From contig JAIOPE010000004.1 in the NCBI GenBank assembly GCA_021414065.1, positions 38,636 to 102,635 on the forward strand: a stretch of DNA of 64,000 nt, read 5' to 3'. The DNA is from Planctomycetota bacterium (GTDB taxonomy: Bacteria; Planctomycetota; JAJSAM01; JAJVHW01). The translations under genes were made by a program, and so were the position numbers. The notes under the pieces were generated by a model. It was given only the letters and a program-made list of their open reading frames with translations. It was not told the origin of the DNA and made no database searches. Positions 10,878 through 32,298 of this stretch are shown one piece after another; the stretch's first letter is position 1; the number at the start of each line of letters is the position of its first letter.

Positions 10878-12614
10878 ATGGACACGACGGCCGTCGGCGG
10901 CGCTGGCGGTCCCGGGAGTTCGCCCCCGGGCCGTCCGCGAATCGTTCTCGAGGATCTCGCGGCGGAAGCCCTCGACGAGTTGCCCGACGTCGCGCGAGAG
11001 ATCCGCGCCCTGCGTCGCATCCTCGAGCTCGGGAAACGGCTCACGCGCATCGACGAGGAAGGCGCGTTCCTCGACGCGTTCCTGGAGGGCGCGAACTCGG
11101 TCGCCGGGAGCGAGCGCGCCTTCCTGGTGGCGCCGGACGGCGCAGGCGGTGCCCACGTCGTACGGTCCCGCGATCTTGCGGGCGAGAGTCGCGAGCCTCG
11201 GACGATCGCCACGCCAGCGGCGATGCGCGCGCTCCAGTCGCGCGAAGCGACCCTCCTTCCCCGGGCGCACGAACCCGGAGTTCCGGGCGAGGACCCTCCC
11301 CCCGGAGTGCGCGCAGTGCTTTGCGTGCCGGTCCCCGGGTCGGAGCCGCGCGCGCTCTATGTAGACGGGCGAAGCGACCGCGACTTGTTCGCAGCGTCGG
11401 ACGCGGACCTTCTCGCGCTCTATGCAGAGCAGGCGGCAGCCGGCCTCGAACGGGTGCGTCTCACGGCGCAGAATCGCCGTCAGCGAGACGAACTGGTCGC
11501 GGCGGGCGAACATGCGGAGAGGCTGAACCGCCGTCTCGCCGAGCTCCTCGAACGCAGGACGCTGGAGCTTCGTGACGTTCGGGAGGACCTGGAGCGGGCG
11601 GGCGTGGACGATGCGTTCCGCTCCCGCTACCCGGAGATCGTCGGGCGCGGCGCCGCCATGTCTGCGGTGCTCCGGATGCTCGACCGCGTGGCCGACACCG
11701 GCGTTCCGGTGCTGTTCGAGGGAGAGAGCGGGACCGGCAAGGAGCTGATGGCGCGGGCGCTCCACGCGTCGAGTCGTCGTTCGGCGGGGCGGTTCGTCGC
11801 GGAGAACTGCGCGGCCCTCCCTGAGACACTCCTTGAGAACGAACTCTTCGGTCACGAACGCGGCGCATTCACCGGCGCCGACCACGCGGCGCCCGGCCTG
11901 TTCGAACGCGCGGACGGCGGAACGCTCTTCCTCGACGAAGTGGGGGACACGAGCGTCGCCCTCCAGAAGAGACTCCTGCGCGTGCTGCAGGAAGGCGAGG
12001 TTCGGCGCGTTGGCGGTTCGTCCGTCCGGAAGGTGGACGTCCGGATCGTGACCGCCACGAATCGCGACCTGCGGAAGCTCGTGGACGATGGCCGTTTCCG
12101 CGAGGACCTCTACTACCGCCTCGCGGTGGTGAAGCTCCGGGTCCCGCCGCTCCGCGAGCGACGCGAGGATCTGGCGGCTCTCGTCCATCACTTTCTCGTG
12201 CGAGCTGCCGGGGGTGGTGCCGCCACGCTTGCGGCCGGGGCGCGGCCGGAGGTCCCGTCGATCGCCGCCGACGCCATGGACGCCTTCGTGGCGTACGACT
12301 GGCCCGGCAACGTGCGGCAGCTTGAGAACGAAGTCCGCCGGGCGGTGGCGCTCTGCCGAGGCGGGGTGATCGATCGGGCGGCCCTGTCGAAGGATCTGCT
12401 CGACGGGCCGCGCGACGCGACGGCGGCGGCGGCCGGCGCCTCCCTGACCGCCGGCCGGTCACTCCGGGACCTCGTCGAGGACCTCGAGACACGCGTCGTG
12501 CGCGAGGTCATCGAGCGCGAGCACGGGAACATCACCCGTGCGGCGGAGGCCCTCGGCTTGTCCCGCCTCGGACTCCGGAAGAAGCTGCGGCGGTACGGCC
12601 TCGTCCGGGATTAG
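10878..12614 (+). CDS. sigma-54-dependent transcriptional activator (GAF sensor, AAA+ domain, Fis-type HTH; no receiver domain)
   Basis: ATG at 10878. The AAA+ core carries [10 protein letters not shown] (Walker A), GAFTGA (the sigma-54 contact loop), TLFLDEVGD (Walker B) and FREDLYYRL. The C-terminal [26 protein letters not shown] is a Fis-type HTH. The N-terminal ~200 aa look GAF-like. Confidence 0.9.
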
Positions 12615-12738
12615 CGACGCGAACACCCGGCAGGACGGGGCAGGCGCCCCGCAGTTCTTGCTGCAAGTAACGTTCAGAACGCGGTTTGTGATGATCGAGA
12701 GCCTGCTTGCACCGATGCGCGACGGTGGGATTTCGTGC

Positions 12739-12768
12739 TTGGGCGCCCTTCCGGCCAGGCTCTATACT
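12739..12768 (+). promoter_or_regulatory. candidate sigma-70-type promoter (TTGGGC-N18-TATACT)
   Basis: TATACT at 12763-12768 matches TATAAT at 5 of 6 positions. TTGGGC lies 18 nt upstream. The element sits in the 488-bp non-coding gap upstream of the FHA gene. This is sequence-pattern evidence only. Confidence 0.2.
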
Positions 12769-13102
12769 CCGCGGGCTCCGCGTCCCTTCGTATCGGGACG
12801 TGGTGGCAGCTTCGTTCGCTGGGCAGTCTGGCTGGGCTCCGTTTCCGGCATCCGTTTCAGACATCCACTGACATCGGTTTCGCACGACCGCTCACGCGGG
12901 CTCCGCGACGCCGTGTCCGAGGGCGTCGGTACGCTGGCCGGAGGCGGCGTGGTCGCGCGAGCGGCCGCCGAGCCCGGCGAGAACGAGGCGACTTGGGCTG
13001 ACCGGATCGAAGTGCGTGGTCGTCTGACGCCCTCCAGCTTGACGCAGGCTGGGGGCACCTGTTGGTGAAACGATCTCCAGACGTTCGGGAGGAAGGCAAG
13101 GC

Positions 13103-15586
13103 ATGCCGAAGCTGACCTACACGGTCGCGGGTGCGAAGAAGACGGTCGATGTGACCGATTCGTGCTCGATCGGTCGCATGGCCGGAAACACGATCGCCAT
13201 CGAGGACGAGGTCGGCGCGTCGCGGCGCCACTGTCAGATCCTGAAGATCTCGTCCGGGTTCGAGTTGTCCGACCTCGGATCCACGAACGGGACGAAGGTC
13301 AACGGGCAGGCCGTCAAGCGGCACAAGCTCAAGGACGGCGACGAGATCCGCATCGGCGAGACCGCCTTCATCTGGTCCGACGGCACGGGTGCCGCGCCGG
13401 AGGACGAGGTCCTCCTTGAGGGCGACGTCGAGCTCGAGGAGCCGGCCGGCGCGGCGCCGAAGCGCGGCGCGGTGACCGCCGCAGCGGCCACCAGCGAGCA
13501 GTGCTACTTGGTCTTCGCCGGCGGCCCGAAGGACGGGCAGAAGATCACGCTCGAGAAGAAGCGCGTGACCTTCGGTCGCAACGCCAAGAACACGAACGTG
13601 TTCGCAGACGACGCCGGCGTCTCGGGCTATCACTGCGAGGTCGCGCGCGAGGGCGGCGCGTACGTCCTGCGAGATCTCGGCAGCACGAACGGCACACTGC
13701 TCGACGGCGAGGCCGTCAGCGAGACGGCGCTGCAGCACGGCAATCGCATTCGCATTGGCGGGCAGCGCCTCGTGTTCGTGGACCCGACGGTGTCGGATTT
13801 CGAGAAGGCGATGTCGGCGGTGGACGACCTCGGATCGGAGTGGGGCCTCCTCCGCGCCGAGATGGACATGTCACGCGTCCAGCAGGCGAAGCGCAGCCAG
13901 ATGGTCGGCGTGGGCGCGGCCATTGTTCTGCTCGGCGGCGCGGGCTTCGTTGCGATCGCCCACCCGGAGTGGATCTCGGGCGGCGCGAAGGCCCCGGAGA
14001 ACGTGCCCGGCAACCAGGTTGCCGACTTCTCCTTCGAGGGTGGCTCGGGGACGTGGAGCGTGGTGCCCGGCTCACCTTCGACGGGCAGGCCTGCAGCCGC
14101 AGCCGATGGCCCGGCGAAGCAGGGCAAGGCGTTCTACTCCGTGTCGCGCGACGGCCCAGCTGGACGCGGCGCTGCCGTGATGGCCGGCGAGCAAGAGCGC
14201 ATCCGCGTGGATCCGTCCAAGTCCTACGCGTTCGGCGCGTCGGTTCGCACGAAGGGCGACGCCCAGGCGTGTGTGCGGGTCACATGGCTCGCCGCCGACA
14301 AGTCCACCGTCGTCGGTGAATCGGCCACGGATCTGGCGTCCGGCGACTCCTGGACCGACGTTCGCCAGTCGGTGGCACAGCCCCCGCGCGATGCGGCGTC
14401 GGCCCGTATCGAGTTGGTGAACGCGCGTTCCGGCACGGCGTTCTTCGATGACGTGTTCTTCGCGCCCGCCGAGTCGAAGCCGGTCGCCCCGGATCTGAAG
14501 GGTGGCGACCTGATGTGCTCCGTCACGGCGGACGGCCAGGCGACGCTGCGTCGCGGCACGACGACGCTCTTCACCGATCTGACAGTCGTGGGCGGGGCCC
14601 TCCACAAGGAGTACGTGGACGGGGTGAGCCGCACGGACCGGGTCGGAGCGCACAAGGCGAGTTCTGTGACGAGCGCCGGCAAGGTTGTCGGCCAGGCGAT
14701 GGACGCGGTGAGCGGGAAAGTGGCGGCTTACTCGGTGCAACCCGCCATCGCCGAAGACCGCTATCTCGACATCGACGCGGACCTGGGCGACGACGCCGCT
14801 CTCGTCGGACTGCTCGAGAAGGAGTCGGTCGAGGAGGGGCTTGGGGTGAGGACCGACTCCGGGTTCTTCCGCATGAGCGACATCCGCTCGGTCGAGAAGG
14901 TCCGCAGTGTCACGTTTGGCGAGCGGAACCGGTTCGAGGTGCTCGGCCGCGACGGGGCCGTGTTCCGCTTCGCGCTCACCAAGCTCGGCGACCGCTGGGC
15001 GTTCGCGATCGGCGGCGCACCGGGTCTCAAACTCCGGGTGGACACCGACAAGGAAGCACTGAAGAAGGCACTGAACGACATCGACACGAAGGCGAAGGAT
15101 GCGGTGGCGTCGCGCCGTTACGGTCTCGCGATCCAGTTGCTCGGTCAGCTAGCTGCCGGCTTGCCGCAGGGCACGCCGGCCGCCGCCGAAGCCGCGACGA
15201 AAGCCGAGGGCCTCGAGTCTGCGGGTCGCGACGAGATCGCACGCATCCACGCCGGCCGCGTTGCTGCGGTCGAGTTCCAGGACGACTCGGAGCTGGCGGC
15301 GATCGCTGAGCGGTCGAAGACGCTTGTGCAGCAGTACGAAGGCCACGAGGTGTGCGATCAGGCGAAAGCGGAGATCGCAGCCGTGGAGACTGCGAAGGCG
15401 CAGCGCAAGCTGGTCCTCGACGAACGCGCAGCGGCGCCGTTGATCGCGAAAGCGGACGACTATGCGAGCCGCGACGACTGGGCGGTCGCCGGCGCGATCT
15501 ACCGAGGTGTGGTGGCGGCGTATCCGGGTACTGAAACTGCCAAGAAGGCCAAGCAGGCCCTCGAATCCGCTCCGGCGGGGAAGTAG
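13103..15586 (+). CDS. dual-FHA-domain transmembrane protein with a periplasmic beta-sandwich (CBM-like) domain and a helical-repeat region
   Basis: There are two FHA domains. The first is GR...N.I.I.D..ASRRHCQI...GFELSDLGSTNGTKVNG and the second is GRNAKNT..FADDAGVSGYHCEV..EGGAYVLRDLGSTNGTLLDG. A TM helix (MVGVGAAIVLLGGAGFVAIA) follows. Next is NQVADFSFEGGSGTWSV...AFFDDVFFAP, which resembles a CBM4/9-type sandwich. The C-terminus is TPR-like. SD GGGAGGA lies upstream. Confidence 0.85.
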   Translation: MPKLTYTVAGAKKTVDVTDSCSIGRMAGNTIAIEDEVGASRRHCQILKISSGFELSDLGSTNGTKVNGQAVKRHKLKDGDEIRIGETAFIWSDGTGAAPEDEVLLEGDVELEEPAGAAPKRGAVTAAAATSEQCYLVFAGGPKDGQKITLEKKRVTFGRNAKNTNVFADDAGVSGYHCEVAREGGAYVLRDLGSTNGTLLDGEAVSETALQHGNRIRIGGQRLVFVDPTVSDFEKAMSAVDDLGSEWGLLRAEMDMSRVQQAKRSQMVGVGAAIVLLGGAGFVAIAHPEWISGGAKAPENVPGNQVADFSFEGGSGTWSVVPGSPSTGRPAAAADGPAKQGKAFYSVSRDGPAGRGAAVMAGEQERIRVDPSKSYAFGASVRTKGDAQACVRVTWLAADKSTVVGESATDLASGDSWTDVRQSVAQPPRDAASARIELVNARSGTAFFDDVFFAPAESKPVAPDLKGGDLMCSVTADGQATLRRGTTTLFTDLTVVGGALHKEYVDGVSRTDRVGAHKASSVTSAGKVVGQAMDAVSGKVAAYSVQPAIAEDRYLDIDADLGDDAALVGLLEKESVEEGLGVRTDSGFFRMSDIRSVEKVRSVTFGERNRFEVLGRDGAVFRFALTKLGDRWAFAIGGAPGLKLRVDTDKEALKKALNDIDTKAKDAVASRRYGLAIQLLGQLAAGLPQGTPAAAEAATKAEGLESAGRDEIARIHAGRVAAVEFQDDSELAAIAERSKTLVQQYEGHEVCDQAKAEIAAVETAKAQRKLVLDERAAAPLIAKADDYASRDDWAVAGAIYRGVVAAYPGTETAKKAKQALESAPAGK

Positions 15587-15594
15587 GAGGGGCC

Positions 15595-17361
15595 ATGGCC
15601 GCGACCGGTACCGGCGTCTCGATCGGCGGGAGGAACGTCCGCGTCCTCCAGGTGAGAAAGACCAAAGAGGGTGGGTGGCAGGTGCTGCGCGGCCTCGTCG
15701 CGCCGCACACCCAGGCCGAGCCCACGGAGGCGGCGCGTCTGTCGGAGGCGAAGTCCGCCGTCGCCAGCGCGCAGGCCAAGGGCCCGGCGCTCGTCGGCGC
15801 TTCGGGACGCGACCTGATCGTGCGCTACACCCACGTGCCGCCGGTCCCCGACTGGCGGCTCGAGATGCTCATGAACTTCGAGATCCAGGAGGTCGCGGAG
15901 CAGTCCGGAGGGGACGTCTCCGCGGCCTACGCGCAACTCGAAGTCGATGACGCCGCGAGCGGGGACAACGTCGTTCTCGTCGCGCTCGCGAAGAACACCT
16001 ATCTGAAGCCGCGCCTCGACGCGCTGCGGCAGACCGGCTTGGATATGCTCGGCGCGTGCCCGAAGGCCGTCGCCGCGTACTGGTGCTACCGCGAGAATGG
16101 GAAGGTCCGGCTCGACGAGACCGTCCTCCTGCTCAACATCGGTCACGAGAACACCGATGTCGCGATCATCCGCAAGGGCACGCTGCTCTTCGGGCGCAAC
16201 GTCGCGGGCGGCAGCAAGTTGCTCACCGACGCGATCCAGCAGAACGTGCGTGTGGACTTCGCCACCGCCGAGAAGCTGAAGATCACGAAGGGCAACCTCA
16301 CGCCCAAGGGTAAGGCGAAGTACCGCGACTCGATGGAGGAGAAGATCGCCAACGCGATGGCCGGCGCCGCCGGTCACTTCGTCTCGGCGGTCAACTCGTC
16401 GGTCATGTTTGCGAAGGCGCAGACGAAGGTCCCGGAGTGCAGCATCAGCCGCGTCGTCGTGACCGGCGGCGGGTCGCTTCTGAAGGGACTCGCTGACTAC
16501 CTTGAGTCGAGCCTCAACCTGCCCGTCGAGGTCTTCGACCCGATGGACTCTGTGGACCTCTCTGCGCTCACGGCGGAGGCTCAGGCCGCGCTGAAGCAGG
16601 ATCAGGGCGGCATGACGGTCGCGCTGGGTCTCGCGCAGATGGCGGCCGACGACGATGCGTTCCGTGTCGCCGTGGTGCCCGAGGAAGACAAGCGGAAGCG
16701 TCGCTTCAAGGAGCGGACGCTCTTCTCGATCGGCGCAGCGGCGGTGCTCGTCCTCGGGCTCGGCGCTGCATGGTCGATGCAGAGCAAGGCGTTCGACGCG
16801 GCGACCGTGGAGAAGGCGGAGCTGGCGAAGCGCAAGGCCATGTTCGAGACCAACCGGTCCGCGTTCGACAAGGCACAGGAGCGCGTCGCGGTCGTGACGA
16901 CGCGGAAGAACGAGCTGCGCACGCTCGTGGCCCTCGGACCCGCGTTCCAGATCATCACTGACGCCGTCCACTCCGTGATCAACCAGGGCGACGGGTACCA
17001 GGAAGTCAATGTTCTGAAGTGCACGTCGAAGATGTCCGACCACACGGTCAAGGACGCCCAGGACAACGCAGTGACGACCCGTGTGCCGTCCGTGGAGTTC
17101 GAGGCGAAGATCCAGGAAATCGGCGGGCGACCGATCTCGGTGGTCGAAGCGCAGTTCAAGTCGGACCTGCGATTGAAGCTGAAGCAGGTCGGCGGCTCGG
17201 TCGGCGGCAAGGATGCGATCGAGTACCAGGACGTCGGTTCGCTCGACGTCCAGAACGGTACCTTCAAGTTCCGCGTTCGCCAGATGGCGTTCCCGGAGAA
17301 GGTCATCCTGGAGGCGCAGTCGCCCTCGGACGACGCGGCGCCCAAGAAGGAGAAGCCCTAG
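15595..17361 (+). CDS. PilM-like actin-fold ATPase domain fused to a TM segment and PilN-like periplasmic domain (GspL-like topology)
   Basis: 588 aa. The N-terminal ~350 aa match PilM features (IGGRNVRVLQV..., LLLNIGHENTDVAIIRKGTLLFGRNVAGGSKLLTDAI, VVVTGGGSLLKGLADYLE). A TM helix (LFSIGAAAVLVLGLGAAW) follows, then a coiled-coil and an alpha/beta region. Confidence 0.8.
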   Translation: MAATGTGVSIGGRNVRVLQVRKTKEGGWQVLRGLVAPHTQAEPTEAARLSEAKSAVASAQAKGPALVGASGRDLIVRYTHVPPVPDWRLEMLMNFEIQEVAEQSGGDVSAAYAQLEVDDAASGDNVVLVALAKNTYLKPRLDALRQTGLDMLGACPKAVAAYWCYRENGKVRLDETVLLLNIGHENTDVAIIRKGTLLFGRNVAGGSKLLTDAIQQNVRVDFATAEKLKITKGNLTPKGKAKYRDSMEEKIANAMAGAAGHFVSAVNSSVMFAKAQTKVPECSISRVVVTGGGSLLKGLADYLESSLNLPVEVFDPMDSVDLSALTAEAQAALKQDQGGMTVALGLAQMAADDDAFRVAVVPEEDKRKRRFKERTLFSIGAAAVLVLGLGAAWSMQSKAFDAATVEKAELAKRKAMFETNRSAFDKAQERVAVVTTRKNELRTLVALGPAFQIITDAVHSVINQGDGYQEVNVLKCTSKMSDHTVKDAQDNAVTTRVPSVEFEAKIQEIGGRPISVVEAQFKSDLRLKLKQVGGSVGGKDAIEYQDVGSLDVQNGTFKFRVRQMAFPEKVILEAQSPSDDAAPKKEKP

Positions 17362-20990: not shown

Positions 20991-20999
20991 GGAGTCCGC

Positions 21000-22933: not shown

Positions 22934-25900
22934 GTGCTGACTTCGGACGGAGCAATTGCCGCAGGCAAGACTCTGAACGAGATCGTGACCAAGACGGTGA
23001 CCAAGATGATGATAACTAAGTATCCGATCGGTGGTAACCAAGTGATCACTCCTCCGTCGCATTCGGCTGCGCGCGCTTCGAGATCCCGCCGGCACTCCGG
23101 GCGGCGCCCGTTCGGGCGCATCTCGCGCGGGGTCGCGCTCGTCTCGGTCGTCTCGGTGCTCGTGCTGCTGATGATCGTTGCCACGCCCTTCCTGCTGTCG
23201 ATGCGCGACAGCGCGAAGCGTGGCGAGAAGTTCCTCTCGAACGAGCGTGCCGACGCCGAGGCCGAGAGTCTCTTTGAGCGCGTGCGGTCGGTACTCACCT
23301 CCGGCTTGCAGCACATCGAACGGCGCAAGCTCGACGCTGGTGCGGCAGCCTCTGGTGGGAGTCGCCCAGCGAACGACGCGACCCCCACGAGCGACACGCC
23401 CGCAGAGTTCCAGCTCCCCGCGGAGATGCTCGCCGAGTTCAACCAGATGTCCGGGAAGGAGCACCGGGTCTGGAGCGTCGAGATCGTCGATGCGCAGTCG
23501 AAGTTCAACCTGAACACCTGCAGCGTCGGCGTTCTCGCGAACCTCCTCGGGCACGGCGAGCTCGGAGATGACATCACCTCGGGAGACGACCGCATCTCCG
23601 TGGGTGCGGGGCTTCCGCTGCCGGAGAAGGACGGAGTCGTTCGCATCGGCTCGGAAGTGATCAAGTACGAGACGTACGACAAGGGCGGCGTGCTGCTCGG
23701 GTGCAAGCGCGGTTTCGCGGCCGACAAGGGCGGAAACAGCGGCGCGGCCGACCACAAGAAGGGTTCGTCGATCATTGCGGAGGCTGCGTTCCAGCTCGCC
23801 GTCCGCCCCTTCCAGGCGCGACCGGGCTCGTGGGTCCGCTACACGAACGTGTACGAGGCCCGCTCGATCTCCGACATGGGAGTCACGACGCTTCGAGCCG
23901 AGGACTTCGATCGCGTCCGTCGCTATCTCACCGCTTGGAGCGGCAACGTCGTCGGTGACGGGTGGTCGAACCCCCAGCTCGTCCGAAACGCGATCTCCGC
24001 CGGTTCGCAGGACCTGTACGCCCAGATCAAGAACGTGCGTTACTTCGGCCCGGGCACGATCGTCCGGATCACCGACGGTGTGAACAACGACTATGCGGTT
24101 GTCACCGACGTACGCGGCACGAACAGCGTGGCGCTGGTCGGGAACATCCAGCACGAGTACCAGGCCGATCAGACACGCATCTACACGCTCGCGCGGGCCG
24201 CCGTGAACGTGAACACCGCCGACGCGCAGACGCTTGCGCTCGTCTTCGAGGGACTGCAACTCGATGGCAAGGAGGCGAAGATCAGCCGGGAGCAGGCGCA
24301 GACGCTTGCGCAGTTCCTTAAGGACTGGAAGAACTCTCTCAACCCGGACGACAAAAACCCCGAGGTGGGAACGTTCCGAAGCTGGCAGGACTTCGTGAAG
24401 GCGCTCGAGGACGCCCGCGACGTGAAGAGCATCCTGAACGGCGACGACTTCGAGGCGGTCCTGCGGAACTGCCTGAATGCCGCCGACGCGCGACTCTCCT
24501 TTTCGACCGTGCCCATCTGCTTCGCGAGCTTCGACGTCTACGAAGCTCGGGTCACGGCCGCGCTCATGGGAGTGCAGGGCCAGGAGAACGCGCGCCGCGA
24601 ACTGCGTCGCGTGTTCGACGTCTCCACGGCCCGTTCCTCCACGTTCGTCATCGAGACGCAGGCGGATTTCCAGGAGCAGATCCGGATCTCGCGCGACGCG
24701 AAGTGGTTCGTCACCTACCCGACGAACGTGAACGCCTTCTACGACGGCGTGAACGAGCCGCCGTCTGAGTACCGGGCCTACGCGAACAAGAACCGGTTCC
24801 CCGACACGGACCGCGCCGCGTCGGCGGGCCACCTCCAGTTGCGAGAAGCCGCCTTCCGCCTCGCAGGTCGCACGGACCGGACGAACCACTTCGACGAGGA
24901 GGACTCCCCGGAGGGCGTGGATCTCTCCAAGCAGGCGCTTGAGATCTCCATCGACGCGCCCTACGACGCCAAGGCACGCAAGGCGGATCTGGCGAAGTTC
25001 GTGCAGGTCCCGCAGCGCTCCACCGACACCGAAGTCGGCCTGGCGCCGTTCGCGTGTTCCTTCTGGTACAAGCCCGGCTGGAGCCTCGACTCCTCGGAGC
25101 ACATCATCTTCGACTACGGTCGCGACGAGGCATTCCTCAACCGCGTCTCGCTGCGCTACGACCCGGCCCGCAATGGACTCGTGCTCGCCGTGGCAGACGC
25201 CACCCGCGAGCAGAGAGCCTGCGAGATCGAGCACCTGTTCGACAAGGACAAGGGCATCAAATGGGAGCAGGACACGTGGTATCACATCGCCTGCACCGTT
25301 TACGGGTGCTCGCCGTCGATGATGGAGTTGTTCGTCGACGGTGAGCAGGTCGGCCGCAATCCGCTGCAGACGCGTCTCTCGAACCAGGTCCAGCCCCTCG
25401 GAGACATCAACTCGCTCGAGGTGGAGGACGCATCCGGGTTCCCCGACTCCGGCGTGCTCATCGTGCGCGGAGTTGACGGCGTCGAGTTGTTCGAGTACTC
25501 GCAGCACAGCAACACCGGTTTCACGATCATCCGCCGGAAGGCGCGGACGCTGGACCACCAACTCGACCAGAACCAGGAGAAGCAGCGCGCACACGCCGCC
25601 GGTGAAGTGGTCGAACTCTACGGCTTCGCGGCGCCGCTCCTCTCCGACGTGAAGCGCGGCGGCGGCACGCTGCCGACGGCGATCGGGCCGTGGCGGGTGT
25701 TCCGCGTCCACGGCACCGACACGATCTCGTACACGCTCACCGCAGGCGGCACGTTCAACGTGACCAACGGCGTGGCGTTCAACCCGAACGCGACGTCGAG
25801 CACGCCGACGACGGTCACGCTCACCGAGTGGGTGAACGGTGACCCCACCGACACGAACACGCTCGACGATCTCGGGCCGCAGAACTCCGAGGGGATCGCG

Positions 25901-28375
25901 CTCATCGTCTCGCCGACCATCACGGTGAACGGCGTGAGCGGCAACCAGGGCGTGGTCACCACCCTCGGCGGCGTCACGAACAGCGACGTCATCGGCGGTG
26001 TGGACGTGGTGCACTACAAGGTCACGACCACCGGCAGCGGCGGACTGACCGTCGAGCTCACCAACCGCGGGCTGAACCTGAAGCACTGGCAGGCGAGCGA
26101 CTACATCCGCAACGCGGAGGGACGGTCCGGGATCGGGCGCTTCTTCCCCGGGTACGACTACGGCAATCCGGCCTCCGTGTGGCCCCCCTACACGGTCAAT
26201 GGCGTGTCGCTTCCGGACCGCGGCGTGCCGTGCGCCTTCATTCCGATCGGTGTGCTGCTCAACGGGACCGGCTCCAGCTATCTCGACCCGGCGAACCAGG
26301 AGCCTCAGCTCGGCTACACGGATGCACAGGGCAACTACGCGCCCAGTGCCGCGTTCGTTCAGGTGGACTCCGAGTGGTTCAAGTACGACGCGTTCGACAA
26401 CCAGCTCATTCCCGGGAAGACCGCCCTTTACCGCGACTTGTCGCTGTGGCTCTCTCCGCAGCCAAGCGCGACGCAGGGTGCGTCAACGCCGAGCATCCAG
26501 TCCGTGTTCCGCGCGGGCGCTACGCAGTTGGTGGGACCGATCGTTCAGAACTCCACCGGGCAGGGCGGCGGGTCCGGCGGCGCATCGACGAACACGGAGC
26601 CTTCGTTCGCCTCGGATCGAAACGTCGAGACGCGGCAGCTTGACGTGCCGAAGACGTCCGGTACGCAGCCGAACAACGAGAAGTCGCCCCCGGAAGTCGC
26701 GGGCGTGCTCGACCTGAGCATGTTGAACATCTCTCGCTCGGTGGACTACCGGAGCTGGGAGGACCGCACGAACAATCGGATCCACCGGATCGCCAACACG
26801 ATTGCGGACTCGCATGCGGCGAACGCGCCCGTGATCCCCTGCTTCGCCCTGTACTCCGGCAACGAGTGGGACGTGACCGAGATGGGACGCCGGGCCAACG
26901 GCGGGTTCAACGATCTGATCACGTTGCGCGACCAGCGCGGCTCGGACGAGCAGATCCGTCTGCAGTGGGGCTATCTCGACCGCTCGCGCACCGGGCTCGG
27001 CGCTCAGGTGCCCTCGGTGAACTGGGTCGCGCCGACGCAGCAGACGATTCAGACCTGGCAGTGGGATCGGCCGACCGACGTGAACGACATGCGCCGCTAC
27101 CCGTCGCAGGCCTTCACCCGCGCGATTAAGTTCCCGAGTGGTGAGATGCCGGACCAGATCCTGACGGCGAACGTCGAGAAAGTGCGTTTCGGCGCGCGGT
27201 ACGACAACGCGGGCGGGACCACGCCGGCGATCGTTGACGAACTGACATTCCCTCTCCTGCAGGTCCCGCCGGACGACCGCCGCGACTGGGTGTTCCTGGG
27301 CCAGGTCCCGGCGCAGATCTTCACGGCGCCGACGACGAGCACAACGACCACAACGACCGCGTTGAAGTTCGTCGGCATCGACGAGAAGACCGACTCGATC
27401 CCGATCTTCATGCCGTTCTACGACCCGAACATCCGGGGGATCGTCCAGCAGGGCCTGCCGATCCCCGCCGAGGTGTTCCGCGCAGACGGTGGGATCGTCC
27501 GGATCGACGAGGAACTCATCCTCTACTCCTCGATCGACACCGAGGCCGGCACGCTGCAGGGCTGCGTCCGTGGTCGCTTCGGCACCCCGGCCAAGTCGCA
27601 CGAGTACGGCGCGATCATCATCCCGGTCGAGACGTTCCCGACGTCGATCCTGATGGCCGGCGTGGATGAGAGTTCCGCGTCGTACGAGATCTCGGACCCG
27701 AGCGACTTCCCCGACGACGGTTGCCTGCGCATCGGCGACGGACTCGAACTGATCGGCTACACCGAGATCTCCGGGAACCAGTTGACCGGACCGCTCGGTC
27801 GCATCGACTCCAACGCCGCGGGCACGCAGGTCAAGCCGGGGCAGGAGGACAAGCGGGTCGGCGGCGCGCTCTTCCGCGGCCGCTTCGGAACGACGCCGGC
27901 CGGGTACCAGCAGGGCGACGTCGTCCTCGCCATGCCGTGGCGACACTACGACCGCTACGCGGAACGCTCCGACGATCCGGAGAACGCGTACTCGCAGTTC
28001 TCGTGGACCAAGTCGAACGCGATCTGGAAGCGGGTCACCTGGGACGAGAATCCCGTGAAGAACGTCGAGGTCATCGCGCTCGTTCGCTTCTCCGGCGGTC
28101 CGGCGTGGGACGCCGACAAGATCATCCGCGTCGGTCAGGAAGAGATCCCGAAGTCGAACCGAAACGCGTTCCTGTACGAGATCACCGACCCGAAGGCTGA
28201 GAACCTGCTCAACGTCGAAGCGGATCGGATCGAGGTGCGCCTGATGGTGCGCTTCGCGAAGGGTGCGTACGATCGCAACATGACGCCGCGGCCCAACGAG
28301 TGGAAGCAGACGCCTTGGGTACAGAAGGTCGTCGTCGAGTACGTGGCGCCGTCGTCGGTGATGTCGCAGGAGTGA
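22934..28375 (+). CDS. giant GspK-like minor pseudopilin with an internal LamG domain (start uncertain: 22934, 23006 or GTG 23042)
   Basis: 1813-aa ORF. The GspK-type N-terminus is RGVALVSVVSVLVLLMIVATPFLL (hydrophobic segment, no Glu+5). The GspK/ComEA-type helix-hairpin-helix motif AAVNVNTADAQTLALVF is at 24203-24220. A LamG-like block FACSFWYKPGW...WYHIACTV...MELFVDGEQVG lies at about 25045-25420. Frame-consistent GC3 bias runs throughout. Confidence 0.8.
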   Translation: MLTSDGAIAAGKTLNEIVTKTVTKMMITKYPIGGNQVITPPSHSAARASRSRRHSGRRPFGRISRGVALVSVVSVLVLLMIVATPFLLSMRDSAKRGEKFLSNERADAEAESLFERVRSVLTSGLQHIERRKLDAGAAASGGSRPANDATPTSDTPAEFQLPAEMLAEFNQMSGKEHRVWSVEIVDAQSKFNLNTCSVGVLANLLGHGELGDDITSGDDRISVGAGLPLPEKDGVVRIGSEVIKYETYDKGGVLLGCKRGFAADKGGNSGAADHKKGSSIIAEAAFQLAVRPFQARPGSWVRYTNVYEARSISDMGVTTLRAEDFDRVRRYLTAWSGNVVGDGWSNPQLVRNAISAGSQDLYAQIKNVRYFGPGTIVRITDGVNNDYAVVTDVRGTNSVALVGNIQHEYQADQTRIYTLARAAVNVNTADAQTLALVFEGLQLDGKEAKISREQAQTLAQFLKDWKNSLNPDDKNPEVGTFRSWQDFVKALEDARDVKSILNGDDFEAVLRNCLNAADARLSFSTVPICFASFDVYEARVTAALMGVQGQENARRELRRVFDVSTARSSTFVIETQADFQEQIRISRDAKWFVTYPTNVNAFYDGVNEPPSEYRAYANKNRFPDTDRAASAGHLQLREAAFRLAGRTDRTNHFDEEDSPEGVDLSKQALEISIDAPYDAKARKADLAKFVQVPQRSTDTEVGLAPFACSFWYKPGWSLDSSEHIIFDYGRDEAFLNRVSLRYDPARNGLVLAVADATREQRACEIEHLFDKDKGIKWEQDTWYHIACTVYGCSPSMMELFVDGEQVGRNPLQTRLSNQVQPLGDINSLEVEDASGFPDSGVLIVRGVDGVELFEYSQHSNTGFTIIRRKARTLDHQLDQNQEKQRAHAAGEVVELYGFAAPLLSDVKRGGGTLPTAIGPWRVFRVHGTDTISYTLTAGGTFNVTNGVAFNPNATSSTPTTVTLTEWVNGDPTDTNTLDDLGPQNSEGIALIVSPTITVNGVSGNQGVVTTLGGVTNSDVIGGVDVVHYKVTTTGSGGLTVELTNRGLNLKHWQASDYIRNAEGRSGIGRFFPGYDYGNPASVWPPYTVNGVSLPDRGVPCAFIPIGVLLNGTGSSYLDPANQEPQLGYTDAQGNYAPSAAFVQVDSEWFKYDAFDNQLIPGKTALYRDLSLWLSPQPSATQGASTPSIQSVFRAGATQLVGPIVQNSTGQGGGSGGASTNTEPSFASDRNVETRQLDVPKTSGTQPNNEKSPPEVAGVLDLSMLNISRSVDYRSWEDRTNNRIHRIANTIADSHAANAPVIPCFALYSGNEWDVTEMGRRANGGFNDLITLRDQRGSDEQIRLQWGYLDRSRTGLGAQVPSVNWVAPTQQTIQTWQWDRPTDVNDMRRYPSQAFTRAIKFPSGEMPDQILTANVEKVRFGARYDNAGGTTPAIVDELTFPLLQVPPDDRRDWVFLGQVPAQIFTAPTTSTTTTTTALKFVGIDEKTDSIPIFMPFYDPNIRGIVQQGLPIPAEVFRADGGIVRIDEELILYSSIDTEAGTLQGCVRGRFGTPAKSHEYGAIIIPVETFPTSILMAGVDESSASYEISDPSDFPDDGCLRIGDGLELIGYTEISGNQLTGPLGRIDSNAAGTQVKPGQEDKRVGGALFRGRFGTTPAGYQQGDVVLAMPWRHYDRYAERSDDPENAYSQFSWTKSNAIWKRVTWDENPVKNVEVIALVRFSGGPAWDADKIIRVGQEEIPKSNRNAFLYEITDPKAENLLNVEADRIEVRLMVRFAKGAYDRNMTPRPNEWKQTPWVQKVVVEYVAPSSVMSQE
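22985..23006 (+). promoter_or_regulatory. direct repeat GTGACCAAGA-N2-GTGACCAAGA inside an atypically AT-rich stretch
   Basis: GTGACCAAGA occurs at 22985-22994 and 22997-23006. It is followed by TGATGATAACTAAGTATCC. This is the most AT-rich stretch I noticed in the window and lies at the very 5' end of the giant ORF. A regulatory role is inference only. Confidence 0.25.
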
Positions 28376-29619
28376 TGACCATGGAACTCCAACAACGCTC
28401 CCGCGGACCGTCAGGCTTCTCGCTCATCGAGTTGATGGTGGCGATGGGCATCTTCTCCGTGATCGGAATCGCGATCGTCTCGCTGCTGACGCGGGCGACC
28501 GAGTTCAGTCGCGCGGGTACGTCCACGACCGAGGTGCTCGACACTCTCCAGTCGTTCACGGAGACGTTCGGCGCGGACGCCGGTGCGATCTACTCGCGGT
28601 CGGACTCGGACGACGGGGCGCCGGTCGTTCGGCTCTACTCCGACGTCGTGAAAACCGACGTGGACGGGGACCAACGCCCGGACGCTCAGGTCCGGCGGTT
28701 GATGTTCGTCCGCATGATCCCCGGCGAGGCGACCGGATCCGTGACACGTACCGCCGGGTCCAACGTCGGCGCCACTGCCGTCATGGACCAGAACCTGGAC
28801 TTGGAGAAGGCCGCAAAGGGGTCGCTCCGCCCGACCGGCGGGCTCATGGAGGTCTTCTGGACCGCGGTGCCCGAGAACAAGGACGATCTCGCGCTCCTGA
28901 CCGCCTACCGCGGCGTACTCGCGCCTCCGGGGGTTGCGGGCAAGACGTTCTTCCCGACGAAATGGGCAGCGGACCCGACGGCCCGCGGGCCGGTGGACCG
29001 TGGCCCGGTTGACCTGAAGGACGTCCAGGCCGTCGCGCGCCCGGTACTCGCCGGCATCCTGTACTTCGGCGTGGATTTCTGGTCCCGTCGCACCGAGACG
29101 TGGGATGCGACGATCGTCCCGCCGAAGGGGCCGCTCCAGGTCTGGGACTCGACGCGCGGGATCATCCCGAAGGGCAAGGGCATCGACGGTTTCTGGTTTG
29201 CCAAACCGAACGTCGTCAACGAGACGCCGACGCTGCTCGACTCCGGTGACGACACGTTCCCACGCCGGATGCGCGTCACGCTCGTCGCGGAAGAGGCGGG
29301 CCAGACCGCGCGAACCGGCCTCCTGATGTCGGAGCTCAGCGCCGACGCTGCCGTGATCGATGTGTCGGACGTGCGGTTCATCCCTGCGACCGACACGACG
29401 CAGCGTTTCGTGAAGATCGGGCCCGAGTGGATCGAGTTCGGCGGCGTCGAGGGGAACCGGATCACCGGCTGCAAGCGCGGCGTGCGCGGCACCACGGCTG
29501 TCGCCCACGAGTACGGATCACGCGTGCACTACGGCAGGACTGTGGTGCGTGAGATCGCCATCGCCACGTATCGAGACGCGTACCGGGACGAACTGCCCTC
29601 CATCAGCGGGCGGAAGTAG
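28375..29619 (+). CDS. prepilin-type minor pseudopilin (PilW/GspJ-like size)
   Basis: The ATG at 28375 overlaps the upstream stop (TGATG). The N-terminus is MTMELQQRSRGPSGFSLIELMVAMGIFSVIGIAIVSLL, a G|FSLIE prepilin motif. 414 aa. Confidence 0.8.
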   Translation: MTMELQQRSRGPSGFSLIELMVAMGIFSVIGIAIVSLLTRATEFSRAGTSTTEVLDTLQSFTETFGADAGAIYSRSDSDDGAPVVRLYSDVVKTDVDGDQRPDAQVRRLMFVRMIPGEATGSVTRTAGSNVGATAVMDQNLDLEKAAKGSLRPTGGLMEVFWTAVPENKDDLALLTAYRGVLAPPGVAGKTFFPTKWAADPTARGPVDRGPVDLKDVQAVARPVLAGILYFGVDFWSRRTETWDATIVPPKGPLQVWDSTRGIIPKGKGIDGFWFAKPNVVNETPTLLDSGDDTFPRRMRVTLVAEEAGQTARTGLLMSELSADAAVIDVSDVRFIPATDTTQRFVKIGPEWIEFGGVEGNRITGCKRGVRGTTAVAHEYGSRVHYGRTVVREIAIATYRDAYRDELPSISGRK

Positions 29620-29624
29620 GTATC

Positions 29625-30176
29625 ATGATCCCACGCATGCGTCGCGCCCGAGGGTTCACGTTGCTCGAGGTCATGATGGCCACCGCCGTCCTGGCCGTAG
29701 GCACGATCTCGGTGCTCATGGTGTTCGGCACTGCTCTCTCGTTCGCCCATCGGCGCCAGGGGCAGCAGCAGTTGACTCAGGTGCTGCAGGAGGCGAGATC
29801 CGACGCGCGTGCGCTCGTGAACTCGTACCGCCCCTCGAAGTCCGGGGCGTCGCAGTCGGGCTCCGCGGCGAAGGATCGGGCGGCCAACACGACCGGCGTC
29901 GCCTCCCCGGCGGGGCAGGACCCCGAGACGCAGCCGAAGAACAGCACCGTGTTCGCGGCCTACACCTACAAACTGCGGTTCGAGCCTGTCCGTCGCGACG
30001 TGCCCGAGTCAGGCTGGCGCACGACCGTCACGGTGAACTGGGGTGACGGGCAGGAGTACGCTGAGGCGATCGTCATCACATCCGACGTGATTCCCGACGA
30101 GGAGTTCGCCTCCTCGAAGACGTACGAAGAAGAGCGCGCCGGCATCGACGCCGCGAAGTCGCGCGAGAAGCGCTGA
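29625..30176 (+). CDS. prepilin-type minor pseudopilin (GspI/GspH-like size)
   Basis: N-terminus MIPRMRRARGFTLLEVMMATAVLAVGTISVLMVFG, a G|FTLLE prepilin motif. 183 aa. Starts 5 nt after the preceding stop. Confidence 0.8.
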   Translation: MIPRMRRARGFTLLEVMMATAVLAVGTISVLMVFGTALSFAHRRQGQQQLTQVLQEARSDARALVNSYRPSKSGASQSGSAAKDRAANTTGVASPAGQDPETQPKNSTVFAAYTYKLRFEPVRRDVPESGWRTTVTVNWGDGQEYAEAIVITSDVIPDEEFASSKTYEEERAGIDAAKSREKR

Positions 30177-30181
30177 AGGAG

Positions 30182-31672
30182 ATGCAGATGCGAAAGACGT
30201 GGGGCTGGCTCCTTGGACTTCTCGTGATCACCGGGATCGGCGCGATCGCGCAGGCGGATGTCGTCGAGTTGGTCGGCGGTCGCGCCGTGCAGGGCCGCAT
30301 TCTCTCCGGGCAGACGTCCGAAGAGGCTCTCGCCCTGGAGTTGTACGACACCGGCGGCACGATCTTGGTCAAGTGGGACCACATCGTCCCGGCGCGTGCG
30401 AAGGAACTCCGCGTCCAGACCGGAATCGAGGTCTCCGAGGACGAGGCACCTACGGTCGCCGGTCACCGGGTGCTTCTCGTGACGGGCCAGGTTCTCGAGG
30501 GCTTGGTCCTCAACCCGGACGCGAAGGACGGTCCGGTCCAGCTCAAGACGCGGACCTCGGTGCAGAACATCGACCGCTCGCAGTGGGTGCGCACGGACCC
30601 CACGGAGCTCGACGGCCTCCTCGTCTACAAGCCCGAGGAGTGGTACCAGATCCGCCGCGACCAGAGCCCGCCGGACACGCCGTTTGCCCACAAGTTGATG
30701 GCGCTCTTCTGCATGAAGATCGGCGCGCTCTCCCAGGCGTCCACGCACCTCGAAGCCGCGATGGCTGACGGCCCCTTCTCCGAGACACCCGAAGGCAAGG
30801 TACTGCCGGCGCTCAAGAAGCAACTTGACGTGCTCATGAAGTCTCAGGGCGCGCAGGACCTGGTGGCGCAGATCAACGCCGCGATGCGGTCGAACCGTTG
30901 GAACCTCGCGCTCAGCACGCTGAACCAGCTCGACGCACAGTACAAGGACGAACAGGTTCGGAAACTCGTGCACTTCGAACTGCTTGAGAGTCGCGTCGTG
31001 CGCGGTCGCGACGGTTACTTCGGCAAGGAGGTCCAGCGCCGCGTCTATGCGACCATGGGCCGCCTGATCGAGGGGAAGTCCCGCGAGAAGAAGCCGCTGC
31101 GCGCGGATGAGAACGCGCCGCGTGGCGTGGCGACCCCGGGGACGCTCGCGGCGGCCCGTCAGTGGCTGGCGCGCGACCTGCCGACGCAGCTCTGGGAGAA
31201 GGTCGCCGCCGAGCTCGAGTTGAAGCCCGAAGAGATGGACCGCTACTGGAAGGCCCGCAGCGGCAAGAACTACCAGTCTTCGTCGTACGGCACCGGCTCG
31301 TTCATCGTGATCAAGCGAGCTGCCGCAGCTGGCGGGTCCGACCCGAATCGGCAGCGTCGGCCTGCGGGCTCGACGCGCGACTCCGGTGGTCAGCAGGGCG
31401 GTCCTCAGCGACAGAGCAAGGAAGACAAGCCGAAGACCGAAGAGGAGTGGTGGGATGAGCGCAGCCCCGGCGATCGCGCCCGCTGGCTCACGGCGTTCTT
31501 CGGTGAGTCGAGCGGGATCTTCGAGGTCATCCGCGCCGACGAGTCGGAATCCTGCGACTCGTGTGGCGGACGCGGCGTTCTCGTGTCGAACGGCACGGAC
31601 GGATCGACCCAGAGCACCGTCTGCCCGAAGTGCAACGGCTCGACCAAGTTCCGCAAGGTCGTCTTCAAGTGA
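30182..31672 (+). CDS. secreted hypothetical protein with a C-terminal CxxCxGxG / CxxCxG zinc-finger-like motif
   Basis: Signal peptide MQMRKTWGWLLGLLVITGIGAIAQA. There is a Gly/Gln/Arg-rich low-complexity linker. The C-terminus is SCDSCGGRGVLVSNGTDGSTQSTVCPKCNGSTKF (DnaJ-type zinc-finger pattern). Starts 5 nt after the preceding gene. Confidence 0.7.
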   Translation: MQMRKTWGWLLGLLVITGIGAIAQADVVELVGGRAVQGRILSGQTSEEALALELYDTGGTILVKWDHIVPARAKELRVQTGIEVSEDEAPTVAGHRVLLVTGQVLEGLVLNPDAKDGPVQLKTRTSVQNIDRSQWVRTDPTELDGLLVYKPEEWYQIRRDQSPPDTPFAHKLMALFCMKIGALSQASTHLEAAMADGPFSETPEGKVLPALKKQLDVLMKSQGAQDLVAQINAAMRSNRWNLALSTLNQLDAQYKDEQVRKLVHFELLESRVVRGRDGYFGKEVQRRVYATMGRLIEGKSREKKPLRADENAPRGVATPGTLAAARQWLARDLPTQLWEKVAAELELKPEEMDRYWKARSGKNYQSSSYGTGSFIVIKRAAAAGGSDPNRQRRPAGSTRDSGGQQGGPQRQSKEDKPKTEEEWWDERSPGDRARWLTAFFGESSGIFEVIRADESESCDSCGGRGVLVSNGTDGSTQSTVCPKCNGSTKFRKVVFK

Positions 31673-31686
31673 AAGCTGGTCGTCAC

Positions 31687-32298
31687 GTGACATCTCACCC
31701 AATTCGCACGACCCACTCGGCTTCGACCACGACGAAGAACGTCGTCGGCATCGCGCTGGCGGTCTCGTTCGTACTGACCGCGTGCCAGCTCGCACACGCG
31801 AAGGCGCCGCTCAGCGGCCCGACGCTCGTGGAGATTCAGGAGCGCGCGAAGCAGGCCGAGGCAGACGCCCGTGCGAAGGCGGTTGAGGCCCAGAAGGACC
31901 CGAACAAGGAAGCGATCGACGCCTTCGCCGTTCGCGGCAAGACCGAACTCAAGGACTTCGGCAAACTTACGCTGATGATCCTCGACGCCGACACGGCCGG
32001 CCTCCAGAGCTATCGCATGCCTGCTGCGGAGGCGCTCGTGAAGCGCTTCCAGCAGGAGAACTGGGACGGCGACGCGAACGTGCGGCAGATCCGACTGGAT
32101 GTCGCGGTGGAGCTGTGCGAGTTGCTCAAAGCCCCGGCCAAGGACGACGTCGGGCTCGCGATTGCAGAGTACGTCTTCGGCACCTGGTATCGCCCCCCCC
32201 TCGTGAACAACCACTGGCGCAAGGATGCGAAGCAGGGCGACCGCCAGAAGGCGTACATCAAGATCAAGAAGTTCCTGAAGGACTCGCAGAAGAAGTAG
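31687..32298 (+). CDS. hypothetical lipoprotein (start uncertain)
   Basis: An in-frame GTG at 31687 avoids overlap with the upstream gene. ...KNVVGIALAVSFVLTACQLAHA contains the lipobox-like LTAC. The rest is Lys-rich and helical. It is the last gene of the co-directional block. Confidence 0.5.
   Translation: MTSHPIRTTHSASTTTKNVVGIALAVSFVLTACQLAHAKAPLSGPTLVEIQERAKQAEADARAKAVEAQKDPNKEAIDAFAVRGKTELKDFGKLTLMILDADTAGLQSYRMPAAEALVKRFQQENWDGDANVRQIRLDVAVELCELLKAPAKDDVGLAIAEYVFGTWYRPPLVNNHWRKDAKQGDRQKAYIKIKKFLKDSQKK

Follow-up and report, generated by a model that had tools for sequence, protein, structure and literature searches.

A type IV filament-like gene block conserved across the Planctomycetota, with a putative two-gene core resembling that of the Akkermansia MUL2 locus

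How Planctomycetes and Verrucomicrobia bring intact polysaccharides into their enlarged periplasm has yet to be explained, and the MUL locus of Akkermansia is the only genetic handle in the PVC superphylum. The genes amuc_1098-1102 are reported to form a 'type IV pili-like' cluster in which MUL2 comprises amuc_1099-1102 and Amuc_1101 is a PilM protein (PMC13174399), Amuc_1102 is pilin-like and the secretin Amuc_1098 lies adjacent to MUL2; MUL genes encoding pili and periplasmic complexes are required for mucin accumulation (PMC12418764), and a role in attachment to fucose-rich glycans has been proposed for MUL2. Here we describe a block of twelve genes (g1 to g12) in a 64,000-nucleotide stretch of DNA from a Planctomycetota bacterium (contig JAIOPE010000004.1; hereafter the window). 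The block very probably encodes a sub-assembly of a type IV filament machine. It appears to share a homologous two-gene core with MUL2, from which it differs in all else, and a common origin of this core with the Amuc_1101/Amuc_1100 module is likely.

Two further groups of described machines bear on the comparison, namely type II secretion systems (T2SS), with their GspG-based pseudopili, and type IVa pili. All of these machines depend on a PilD-type peptidase for their pilin-like proteins, on an ATPase of GspE/PilB type and a membrane protein of GspF/PilC type for assembly, and on a conduit for passage through the outer membrane. The classical type IVa pilus genes are split among several loci (pilMNOPQ, pilBCD and fimU-pilVWXY1E in Pseudomonas), and the platform genes stand apart from the ATPase and peptidase genes, as they do in the block.

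The twelve open reading frames (ORFs) of the block are intact, occupy positions 10878-32298 of the + strand of the window (G+C ~69%), and have a coding-type third-position GC content (GC3) of 0.79-0.90. As an earlier note made from the sequence had described, the genes are co-directional and closely spaced, apart from a 488-bp gap after the first; taken from the coordinates, the distances from g1 to g12 are 488, 8, 0, -4, 9, 49, 109, -1, 5, 5 and ~14 bp, with stop and start codons overlapping at g4-g5 (-4 bp) and g8-g9 (-1 bp). The block lies between clpX/tig on one side and scpB/lexA on the other and therefore is no mobile island. Related loci were compared by tblastn and iterative profile searches: one genome per species was scanned, 203 genomes matched, and the best 80 loci were examined.

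The likeness to MUL2 centres on g3 and g4 (values in brackets are E-values unless stated otherwise). Pfam finds PilM_2 in g3 (1.2e-18), and a transmembrane (TM) helix is predicted at residues 374-392. In the Protein Data Bank (PDB), the N-terminal domain matches Myxococcus xanthus PilM (3jc8, 3.7e-35) and also Thermus PilM, and the last 230 residues, searched as a profile from 61 orthologs, match M. xanthus PilN (3jc8_Na, 4.3e-7). Because the N-terminus matches PilM and the C-terminus PilN, g3 is a PilM-PilN fusion and not a GspL. The earlier note had proposed such a fusion with the domain logic of GspL; the former half of that call stood and the latter did not, and tblastn with E. coli GspL, GspM and GspC gave no match in the window or in the related loci. 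The best named family for g3 was NCBIfam Amuc_1101_fam (NF045709, 'Amuc_1101 family PilM-like pilus complex protein'; 7.7e-43), which scored about twice as high as the generic model TIGR01175 pilM (1.7e-21). Since this alignment spans residues 8-505, the similarity reaches past the PilM domain. (The homologues of g3 are all ~570 amino acids (aa) long; their source names, where given, are PilM or FtsA, and the few names that bear an organism read 'Planctomycetes/Planctomycetota bacterium'.)

Immediately downstream, g4 has no Pfam match and belongs to a small family (173 representatives in 1.84 billion). An AlphaFold2 model built with 38 homologues (pLDDT 89) consists of a TM helix, a helical stalk and an alpha-beta-beta-alpha-beta-beta domain. 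When this model was compared with the PDB by Foldseek, the top 10 matches were all Amuc_1100 (6kny, 6lad and 6laf; E 1e-6 to 2.5e-5), with TM-scores on the target of 0.57-0.69, and the next-ranked matches were PilO. A profile from 131 representatives matched PilO (1.5e-5 and 0.004), with Amuc_1100 marginal (0.025). We therefore take g4 to be a predicted PilO homologue with an Amuc_1100 fold; an alternative label of GspM-like, also offered by the earlier note, found no tblastn match. In the block and in MUL2, both from organisms of the PVC superphylum, a PilM-like protein that has a TM segment and extends into the periplasm directly precedes a PilO-like protein of the Amuc_1100 fold, and both loci lie beside pilin-like genes. 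Both also contain TPR elements, at the N-terminus of Amuc_1098 and in g5.

The two remaining platform proteins flank this pair. In g2, Pfam finds two FHA domains (3.6e-36) and Yop-YscD_cpl (1.5e-24), NCBIfam gives TagH (8e-19) and GltG (7.5e-15), and a single TM segment lies at residues 265-283; note that the TagH, GltG and Yop-YscD_cpl matches are all under their family cut-offs. The family profile of g2 matches phosphothreonine-binding FHA domains of the GarA/OdhI type, and its positions 276-464, past the TM segment, match carbohydrate-binding modules (CBMs) of hyaluronate lyase (4d0q, 8.5e-7) and xylanase (2w5f, 1.3e-6); 9 of 61 g2 orthologs contain Pfam CBM_4_9 (best 5.3e-7). These matches indicate that g2 joins two cytoplasmic FHA domains of the phosphothreonine-reader kind to a periplasmic CBM-like domain. 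A similar layout, with FHA domains in the cytoplasm, one TM segment and a large portion in the periplasm, is seen in YscD/PrgH of type III secretion, Fha/TagH of type VI secretion and GltG of Myxococcus. YscD and PrgH form rings in trans-envelope machines. Compared with these proteins, g2 has two FHA domains, a CBM-like and helical periplasmic part and no YscD ring-building motifs, and the platform with which it is associated is that of a type IV filament. The protein g5, in turn, matches TPR_19 (2.7e-19) and other TPR families in Pfam and has an N-terminal TM segment at residues 1-19, in agreement with its description as a TPR anchor protein; its beta-rich C-terminal domain has no sequence relatives in Pfam or the PDB. 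(We entertained a hidden secretin in g5 and rejected it: Pfam, NCBIfam and tblastn found no secretin domain, and the C-terminal domain has no PDB relatives.)

Five prepilin-type genes follow, as had been noted. The proteins g6, g7, g9 and g10 score above the Pfam N_methyl threshold (2.1e-8, 1.2e-4, 1.8e-6 and 3.8e-7, respectively) and bear the prepilin signatures G↓FTLIE, G↓FSLLE, G↓FSLIE and G↓FTLLE, and g8 joins them through a GspK match below cut-off. For g6, the profile from 50 orthologs has PulG/GspG (5wda, 2e-15) as its closest PDB relative, and its C-terminal SxGxDGxxGTxDDI motif matches GspG entries only (3g20, 1t92 and 2kep). Against TIGR01710 GspG the score of g6 (8.8e-10, 38.7 bits) is under the 88.85 cut-off, and the protein is therefore GspG-like and not an equivalog. 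We conclude that g6 is a GspG-type major subunit and that g7, g9 and g10 are prepilins with G↓FxLxE signatures.

Among 43 members of the g7 family, Pfam finds N_methyl in 41, Laminin_G_3 in 33 (best 5.7e-16) and GspH in 2. The giant g8 matches NCBIfam T2SS_GspK (NF037980) over residues 65-195, that is, in its N-terminal third only, at 9.8e-12 and 45 bits against a cut-off of 130, and like GspK it lacks Glu5; its N-terminus thus seems to be GspK-like. (An alignment of orthologs suggests that its true start is M25 or M26, at 23006/23009, which would shorten it to ~1,788 aa.) Pfam places Laminin_G_3 at residues 699-816 of g8 (6.4e-8), and the domain recurs in 12 of 28 relatives. An AlphaFold2 model of residues 1-1200 (pLDDT 68.6) has a long pilin-type N-terminal helix at 69-122 and many beta-rich domains, and Foldseek returned for this multi-domain model weak matches to the lectin-type receptor-binding domains of botulinum toxin and clostridial neurotoxins. 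Both g7 and g8 carry ConA/LamG lectin-type modules. Modular type IV pilins with grafted adhesive modules are known, for example the minor pilins PilB and PilC of Streptococcus sanguinis; there, as here, fusion of a pilin N-terminus to a lectin-type module would give a direct route to ligand binding, although those pili are unrelated type IV pili of monoderms and the block has one far larger, GspK-like carrier.

The labels that the earlier note attached to the gene order fared unevenly: GspG-type and a GspK-like N-terminus stand, whereas 'J-like' and 'I-like' rest only on the N-terminal pilin helix. Specifically, g9 matches E. coli GspJ at the N-terminus only (4.7e-5, tblastn), g10 gives weak PilV, GspI, GspH and GspJ matches that are N-terminal only, and the profiles of g9 and g10 found no relatives in the PDB past the N-terminal helix. 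A motif of ~45 aa, (V/I)RIGxExIxY...LxGCxRGxxGTxxxxHxYG, is common to g8 (residues ~1510-1560, nt ~27460-27615) and g9 (~335-385, nt ~29375-29530), is conserved in both families and has no Pfam match; degenerate copies lie near residues 232-275 and 1595-1625 of g8. It may be a small domain that links the two proteins.

The block is a conserved unit across the phylum, beyond chance. The order FHA, PilM-PilN, g4, TPR, GspG-like, g7 was found in essentially all loci of sufficient length, and the giant g8 comes next after g7 in most. The best 80 loci are labelled Planctomycetota, Planctomycetia, Planctomycetales, Phycisphaeraceae or unclassified, nearly all being Planctomycetota, and they include the cultured Saltatorellus ferox Poly30, in whose complete genome (NZ_CP036434.1) the block lies at ~2.69 Mb. 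Two loci (L084 and L085) have full synteny from g2 to g12, with 43-55% protein identity for g3, g4 and g8, and continue past g12 with the same g13-type gene, scpB, a SurA-like gene and lexA. In one subgroup (L016-L037; e.g. L017:16090-20669), g7 is followed directly by g9, g10 and g11 with no giant g8, so that part of the phylum either does without the giant subunit or encodes it at another place. (Note that a 6.2-kb contig, L073, carries the FHA, PilM-PilN, g4 and TPR genes in a metagenome-assembled genome labelled Paracoccaceae; this is most likely a binning contaminant and not a transfer outside the Planctomycetota.)

As the earlier note had reported, the window holds no GspD/PilQ, GspE/PilB, GspF/PilC or PilD-type gene. 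tblastn with E. coli GspC-O on the 64-kb window gave no homologue of D, E, F, O, L, M or C, even at E<=10; a scan of the window for the Walker A motif GxTGSGK[ST] found ClpX only; and the candidate genes from 0.8 to 55 kb (by Pfam) and the ORFs from 55 to 64 kb (by reading) are housekeeping only, with no motor genes. No block protein has a Pfam or NCBIfam secretin match, and E. coli GspD, used as a tblastn query, had no match in the window, even at E<=10, or in 82 loci. Within +/-10 kb of the PilM-PilN gene in 80 loci, tblastn found no homologue of GspD, GspF or GspO, and PilB/PilT, PilC, PilD, PilQ and PilP were likewise absent from the window and from +/-10 kb of related loci. The sole GspE-like match across the 80 loci, in L078, belongs to a CpaF/TadBC Tad cluster. 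That cluster (L078:763-6821) looks like a complete Tad/Flp set, with TadE/G-like proteins, a TadZ-like AAA_31 protein, a CpaF-type T2SSE ATPase and two T2SSF proteins, and lies directly upstream of the FHA gene in this one locus of the 80; the ATPase was rejected as the cognate motor on account of the neighbouring Tad cluster and its occurrence in 1 of 80 loci. The earlier note had regarded the absence of motor and secretin genes as unusual. Because type IVa pilus loci are normally split, the absence is not anomalous in itself, and it recurs in the 80 related loci, the Tad cluster of L078 excepted. A motor encoded elsewhere is the only workable reading.

Table 1. Positions (in the window) and predicted products of the block, its presumed promoter region and one possible accessory gene
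Feature	Position	Strand	Predicted product or role
g1	10878..12614	+	Sigma-54-dependent activator: GAF sensor, AAA+ domain, Fis-type helix-turn-helix
g1-g2 gap	12615..13102	+	488 bp, presumed promoter region
g2	13103..15586	+	Bitopic protein: two cytoplasmic FHA domains, one TM segment, periplasmic CBM-like beta-sandwich, C-terminal helical/TPR-like region
g3	15595..17361	+	PilM-PilN fusion, related to the Amuc_1101 family
g4	17362..18207	+	Bitopic PilO-like protein, Amuc_1100-like fold
g5	18204..20990	+	928-aa membrane-anchored TPR protein; beta-rich C-terminal domain of ~240 aa
g6	21000..21656	+	GspG-type major (pseudo)pilin
g7	21706..22824	+	Modular minor pilin: prepilin N-terminus and ConA/LamG lectin-type domain; possibly GspH-related
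g8	22934..28375	+	Giant GspK-like minor pilin, 1813 aa as called; LamG module and further beta-rich domains
g9	28375..29619	+	414-aa minor pilin; start overlaps g8 stop codon
g10	29625..30176	+	183-aa minor pilin
g11	30182..31672	+	Exported 496-aa protein, C-terminal zinc-ribbon-like motif
g12	31687..32298	+	Putative lipoprotein, ~200 aa
Possible accessory gene, outside block	6108..10076	+	1322 aa; multi-TM N-terminal domain and long TPR arrays

Compared with the described machines, the block, as judged by the family matches, fails the defining features of the canonical T2SS and of the type IVa pilus. It resembles a T2SS pseudopilus in its GspG-type major subunit with the C-terminal DGxxGTxDDI motif, in one GspK-like N-terminus without Glu5 and in five pilin-like genes in a row with prepilin-peptidase signatures. 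It differs in gene order (G, H-like, K-like, then two others), in minor subunits that are 2-6 times larger and LamG-bearing (the oversize had been pointed out before), and in having no GspC, D, E, F, L, M or O homologue and a platform that matches PilM, PilN and PilO. To the PilM-PilN-PilO(-PilP) assembly of the M. xanthus type IVa pilus (3jc8) it is tied by PilM (3.7e-35), PilN (4.3e-7) and PilO (1.5e-5, and by fold), whereas PilM and PilN are fused in the block, no PilP/PilQ gene follows, TPR and pseudopilin genes stand there instead, and g6 is GspG-type, with type IVa pilins matching only its N-terminal helix. Relative to MUL2, the block has in addition the double-FHA/CBM protein, the sigma-54 activator, the separate 928-aa TPR protein, the GspG-type major subunit, four minor pilins that include a GspK-like protein of 1.8 thousand aa, and g11 and g12. 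We also rejected two other assignments. Of the Verru_Chthon cassette (TIGR02596-TIGR02600), only TIGR02596 (protein D) gave a match, to g6 (2.1e-4), and its 21 bits fall short of the cut-off of 70, while g8 gave no match to Verru_Chthon protein A; as for a Tad/Flp (type IVc) pilus, Pfam found no Flp pilin, TadE/F, CpaF or TadB/C match in the block. The block would thus represent a PVC-type branch of the type IV filament superfamily. That it belongs to no described subtype, as the earlier note put it, holds for the whole (FHA, TPR, giant GspK-like protein, g11 and g12), which we did not find described for Planctomycetes in the literature searched, but not for the g3-g4 pair, which has a named relative in Amuc_1101-Amuc_1100.

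On balance we favour a Planctomycetota-conserved type IV filament machine of the MUL2 lineage, perhaps a glycan-binding fibre, for which the block would supply both the filament subunits and the assembly scaffold in the inner membrane and periplasm. In such a machine, g2, g3, g4 and g5 would form a trans-membrane platform, and g6 would be processed and polymerised by components whose genes lie elsewhere in the genome: a prepilin peptidase, an ATPase of GspE/PilB type, a platform protein of GspF/PilC type and an outer-membrane conduit. The proteins g7-g10 would act as a priming complex that starts polymerisation, with the giant g8 capping the tip in the manner of GspK/PilX-type subunits; because minor pilins initiate assembly and remain at the tip, the LamG modules of g7 and g8 would be exposed at the filament end. 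The fibre would display lectin-type modules that bind glycans or other polymers, and by extending and retracting it would catch substrate and carry it to the envelope, as has been proposed for Akkermansia MUL2. Glycan capture is the more tentative part of this reading and is suggested, by analogy, by the lectin and CBM modules, by the MUL2 core homology and by the dextran-binding fibres of planctomycetes: pili-like fibres on their crateriform structures bind gold-labelled dextran, within a macromolecule uptake system that is uncharacterised (Boedeker et al., PMC5394234).

Several observations weigh against this reading. The score of g3 against the Amuc_1101 family is 147 bits, with a cut-off of 650, and g3 therefore belongs to a related family and is not an equivalog; the likeness of g4 to Amuc_1100 is at the level of the fold only, with 8-13% identity and a profile E of 0.025. 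The block also differs from MUL2 in having neither an adjacent Amuc_1098-type secretin nor an Amuc_1102-like pilin (Amuc_1102, 7DSZ, was not among the PDB matches of the g6, g9 and g10 profiles), and the function of MUL2 itself reportedly derives from transposon mutants and predictions. The motor is pure inference, because no ATPase, platform protein, peptidase or secretin lies in the window or within +/-10 kb of 80 loci. GspG-type subunits normally form short periplasmic secretion pseudopili and not long fibres, and LamG and CBM-like folds bind proteins too. Finally, the gap between g1 and g2 has no -24/-12 sigma-54 consensus at <=2 mismatches.

A rival reading is a divergent T2SS pseudopilus/platform operon, in which a short periplasmic GspG pseudopilus capped by g7-g10 pushes folded exoproteins (e.g. 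carbohydrate-active enzymes) through a secretin encoded elsewhere and the lectin-type modules recognise glycosylated or specific cargo, not external polymers. The closeness of the g6 profile to PulG/GspG, including the GspG-specific C-terminal motif, would fit such an operon, as would the GspK-like N-terminus of g8 and the row of five pilin-like genes, which is as in gspGHIJK. Type II secretion proteins are moreover up on fucoidan in a marine planctomycete (PMC11685898), and a transposon-sequencing (Tn-seq) study describes an essential operon of Planctopirus limnophila with GspE, PilT, GspE, GspF and six planctomycete-only genes (PMC10632474); in its supplementary file 3, covering Plim_0401-0410, two GspE genes, GspF and the six planctomycete-only hypothetical genes are essential and the PilT-like gene is 'unclear'. 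(Essential type IV-filament-like genes are unusual.) We nevertheless consider secretion unlikely, if far from negligible: the platform is of PilM/PilN/PilO type and not GspL/GspM/GspC, the closest characterised relatives, Amuc_1101 and Amuc_1100, sit in a locus linked to uptake or attachment and not to export, and lectin-bearing minor subunits of 372-1813 aa would be hard to accommodate in a secretin vestibule.

Alternatively, the block may serve the envelope itself. It would then build a structural complex that spans the envelope, for instance the crateriform 'press studs' by which the outer and cytoplasmic membranes of Planctomycetes are held together, and would act mainly in envelope architecture or another essential housekeeping role to which any filament or ligand function would be secondary. 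By Tn-seq, the planctomycete-restricted PilM gene Plim_0076 and its two neighbours (Plim_0076-0078) are essential in P. limnophila, as is the T2SS-like operon (PMC10632474); crateriform structures connect both membranes and carry fibres (PMC5394234); the block is phylum-wide and lies amid housekeeping genes; and FHA/YscD-like and TPR proteins are of the kinds that form rings in other trans-envelope machines. The neighbourhood of the essential P. limnophila genes looks unlike the block, however, the block has no outer-membrane component, and nothing directly ties its proteins to crateriform structures, so that we judge a structural complex quite improbable. (When the FHA-PilM neighbourhood was sought in the available P. 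limnophila Tn-seq tables, no clear orthologue could be assigned.) That the block is a decaying, non-functional remnant of a type IV pilus or T2SS locus that has lost its motor genes would explain why no motor, secretin or peptidase genes were found in the 64 kb, but it is scarcely credible given that all 12 ORFs are intact with coding-type GC3, that ~80 species-level genomes, with protein identities as low as ~20-35%, preserve both gene order and reading frames, and that many columns are invariant across the families.

Under the reading that we favour, of a filament machine of the MUL2 lineage, the Amuc_1101/Amuc_1100 core would be part of a much larger, phylum-wide planctomycetal gene set, and g4 would give Amuc_1100, a much-studied host-active molecule, a structural context as a PilO-type platform protein. 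With its defined major subunit, lectin-bearing minor pilins and CBM-bearing FHA protein, the set therefore offers a concrete gene list for tractable planctomycetes such as P. limnophila. A bolder proposal, which we regard as distinctly doubtful, is that the block is the genetic basis of macromolecule capture by planctomycetal fibres and crateriform structures and would, together with MUL2, represent an ancestral PVC machine, a lectin-tipped, GspG-based retractile filament that binds polysaccharides whole and pulls them into the periplasm for 'selfish' uptake without SusCD, the double-FHA/CBM protein coupling periplasmic glycan sensing to control by Ser/Thr phosphorylation. Were secretion or envelope architecture true instead, the block would still be an uncharacterised, widely conserved branch of the type IV filament superfamily.

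The block is probably gated transcriptionally by g1. As the earlier note had it, this is a GAF/sigma-54 activator placed before a dual-FHA TM protein: g1 matches Sigma54_activat (2.9e-68) and HTH_8 (2e-11) in Pfam and an NtrC/AtoC-type family in NCBIfam, with GAF_3 (2.6e-5) weak and below cut-off. An activator homologue adjoins the FHA gene upstream, co-directional or divergent, in many related loci, and it is on this conserved adjacency, not on a recognisable -24/-12 promoter in the window, that the proposal is based. In the g1-g2 gap the top core-anchored sigma-54 promoter score was 6/11, and no Rfam family matched. Across loci, 6 of 60 upstream regions scored >=9/11, as did 0 of 80 control segments within g3; this cross-locus signal is suggestive only. 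Post-translational gating through the FHA domains by Ser/Thr phosphorylation may also occur, given those domains and a kinase neighbour in one locus, where a gene for a 1184-aa Ser/Thr protein kinase lies immediately upstream of the FHA gene (L046:3588-7142). (That locus seems to stop after the TPR gene and a 167-aa ORF, without large minor pilins. Its record is labelled 'Candidatus Kuenenia stuttgartiensis', a label that looks wrong because the G+C is 64%.)

Upstream of g1, the protein encoded at 6108-10076 has at least 7 hydrophobic segments within residues 31-414 by TM scan and TPR families by Pfam; NCBIfam gives a PilW-type TPR match (5.1e-24) and a weak PMT match (2.8e-5, residues 106-193). 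Its architecture is TMTC-like, with an N-terminal domain weakly resembling GT-C glycosyltransferases and protein O-mannosyltransferases, and in ~20 related loci the activator gene is preceded by a homologue over the full length. The protein may serve to glycosylate parts of the system.

At the other end of the block, the calls of a secreted zinc-finger-like protein and a lipoprotein held up. The sequence of the former, g11, reads as having a signal peptide, and at its C-terminus stands a CxxCxGxG...CxxCxG motif, which is kept in 11 of 13 orthologs with an available C-terminus and gives a weak DnaJ_CXXCXGXG match in Pfam (7.3e-4). The latter, g12, has by eye a lipobox, LTAC, and no Pfam or NCBIfam family match; its orthologs stand at the same position in L084 and L085. 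Between g12 and scpB lies a conserved 369-aa ORF, g13 (32618-33727, + strand), whose stop overlaps the scpB start, the place expected for scpA; L084 and L085 have orthologs in the corresponding position. Searches of Pfam, NCBIfam and the PDB gave no match for g13, and it was left out of the system. (Note that a simple GC3 heuristic favoured the opposite strand in this region.)

The rest of the window is housekeeping: clpP, clpX, tig, tRNA-Leu, scpB, a SurA-like gene, lexA, an M24 peptidase gene and rplS, together with trmD, an MlaD-domain gene, genes for HEAT-repeat proteins, sucCD, a polyprenyl synthase gene and comEC. Two divergent HEAT-repeat proteins, one with a VWA_3 domain, are encoded at 51356-54675. 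The ComEC-type gene (62658-63998, - strand) crosses the 3' end of the window and is continued in L081/L082; it encodes 784 aa with DUF4131, Competence and Lactamase_B domains, and is thus a gene for a ComEC-type DNA-uptake channel in a genome whose sole visible pilin genes are those of the block.

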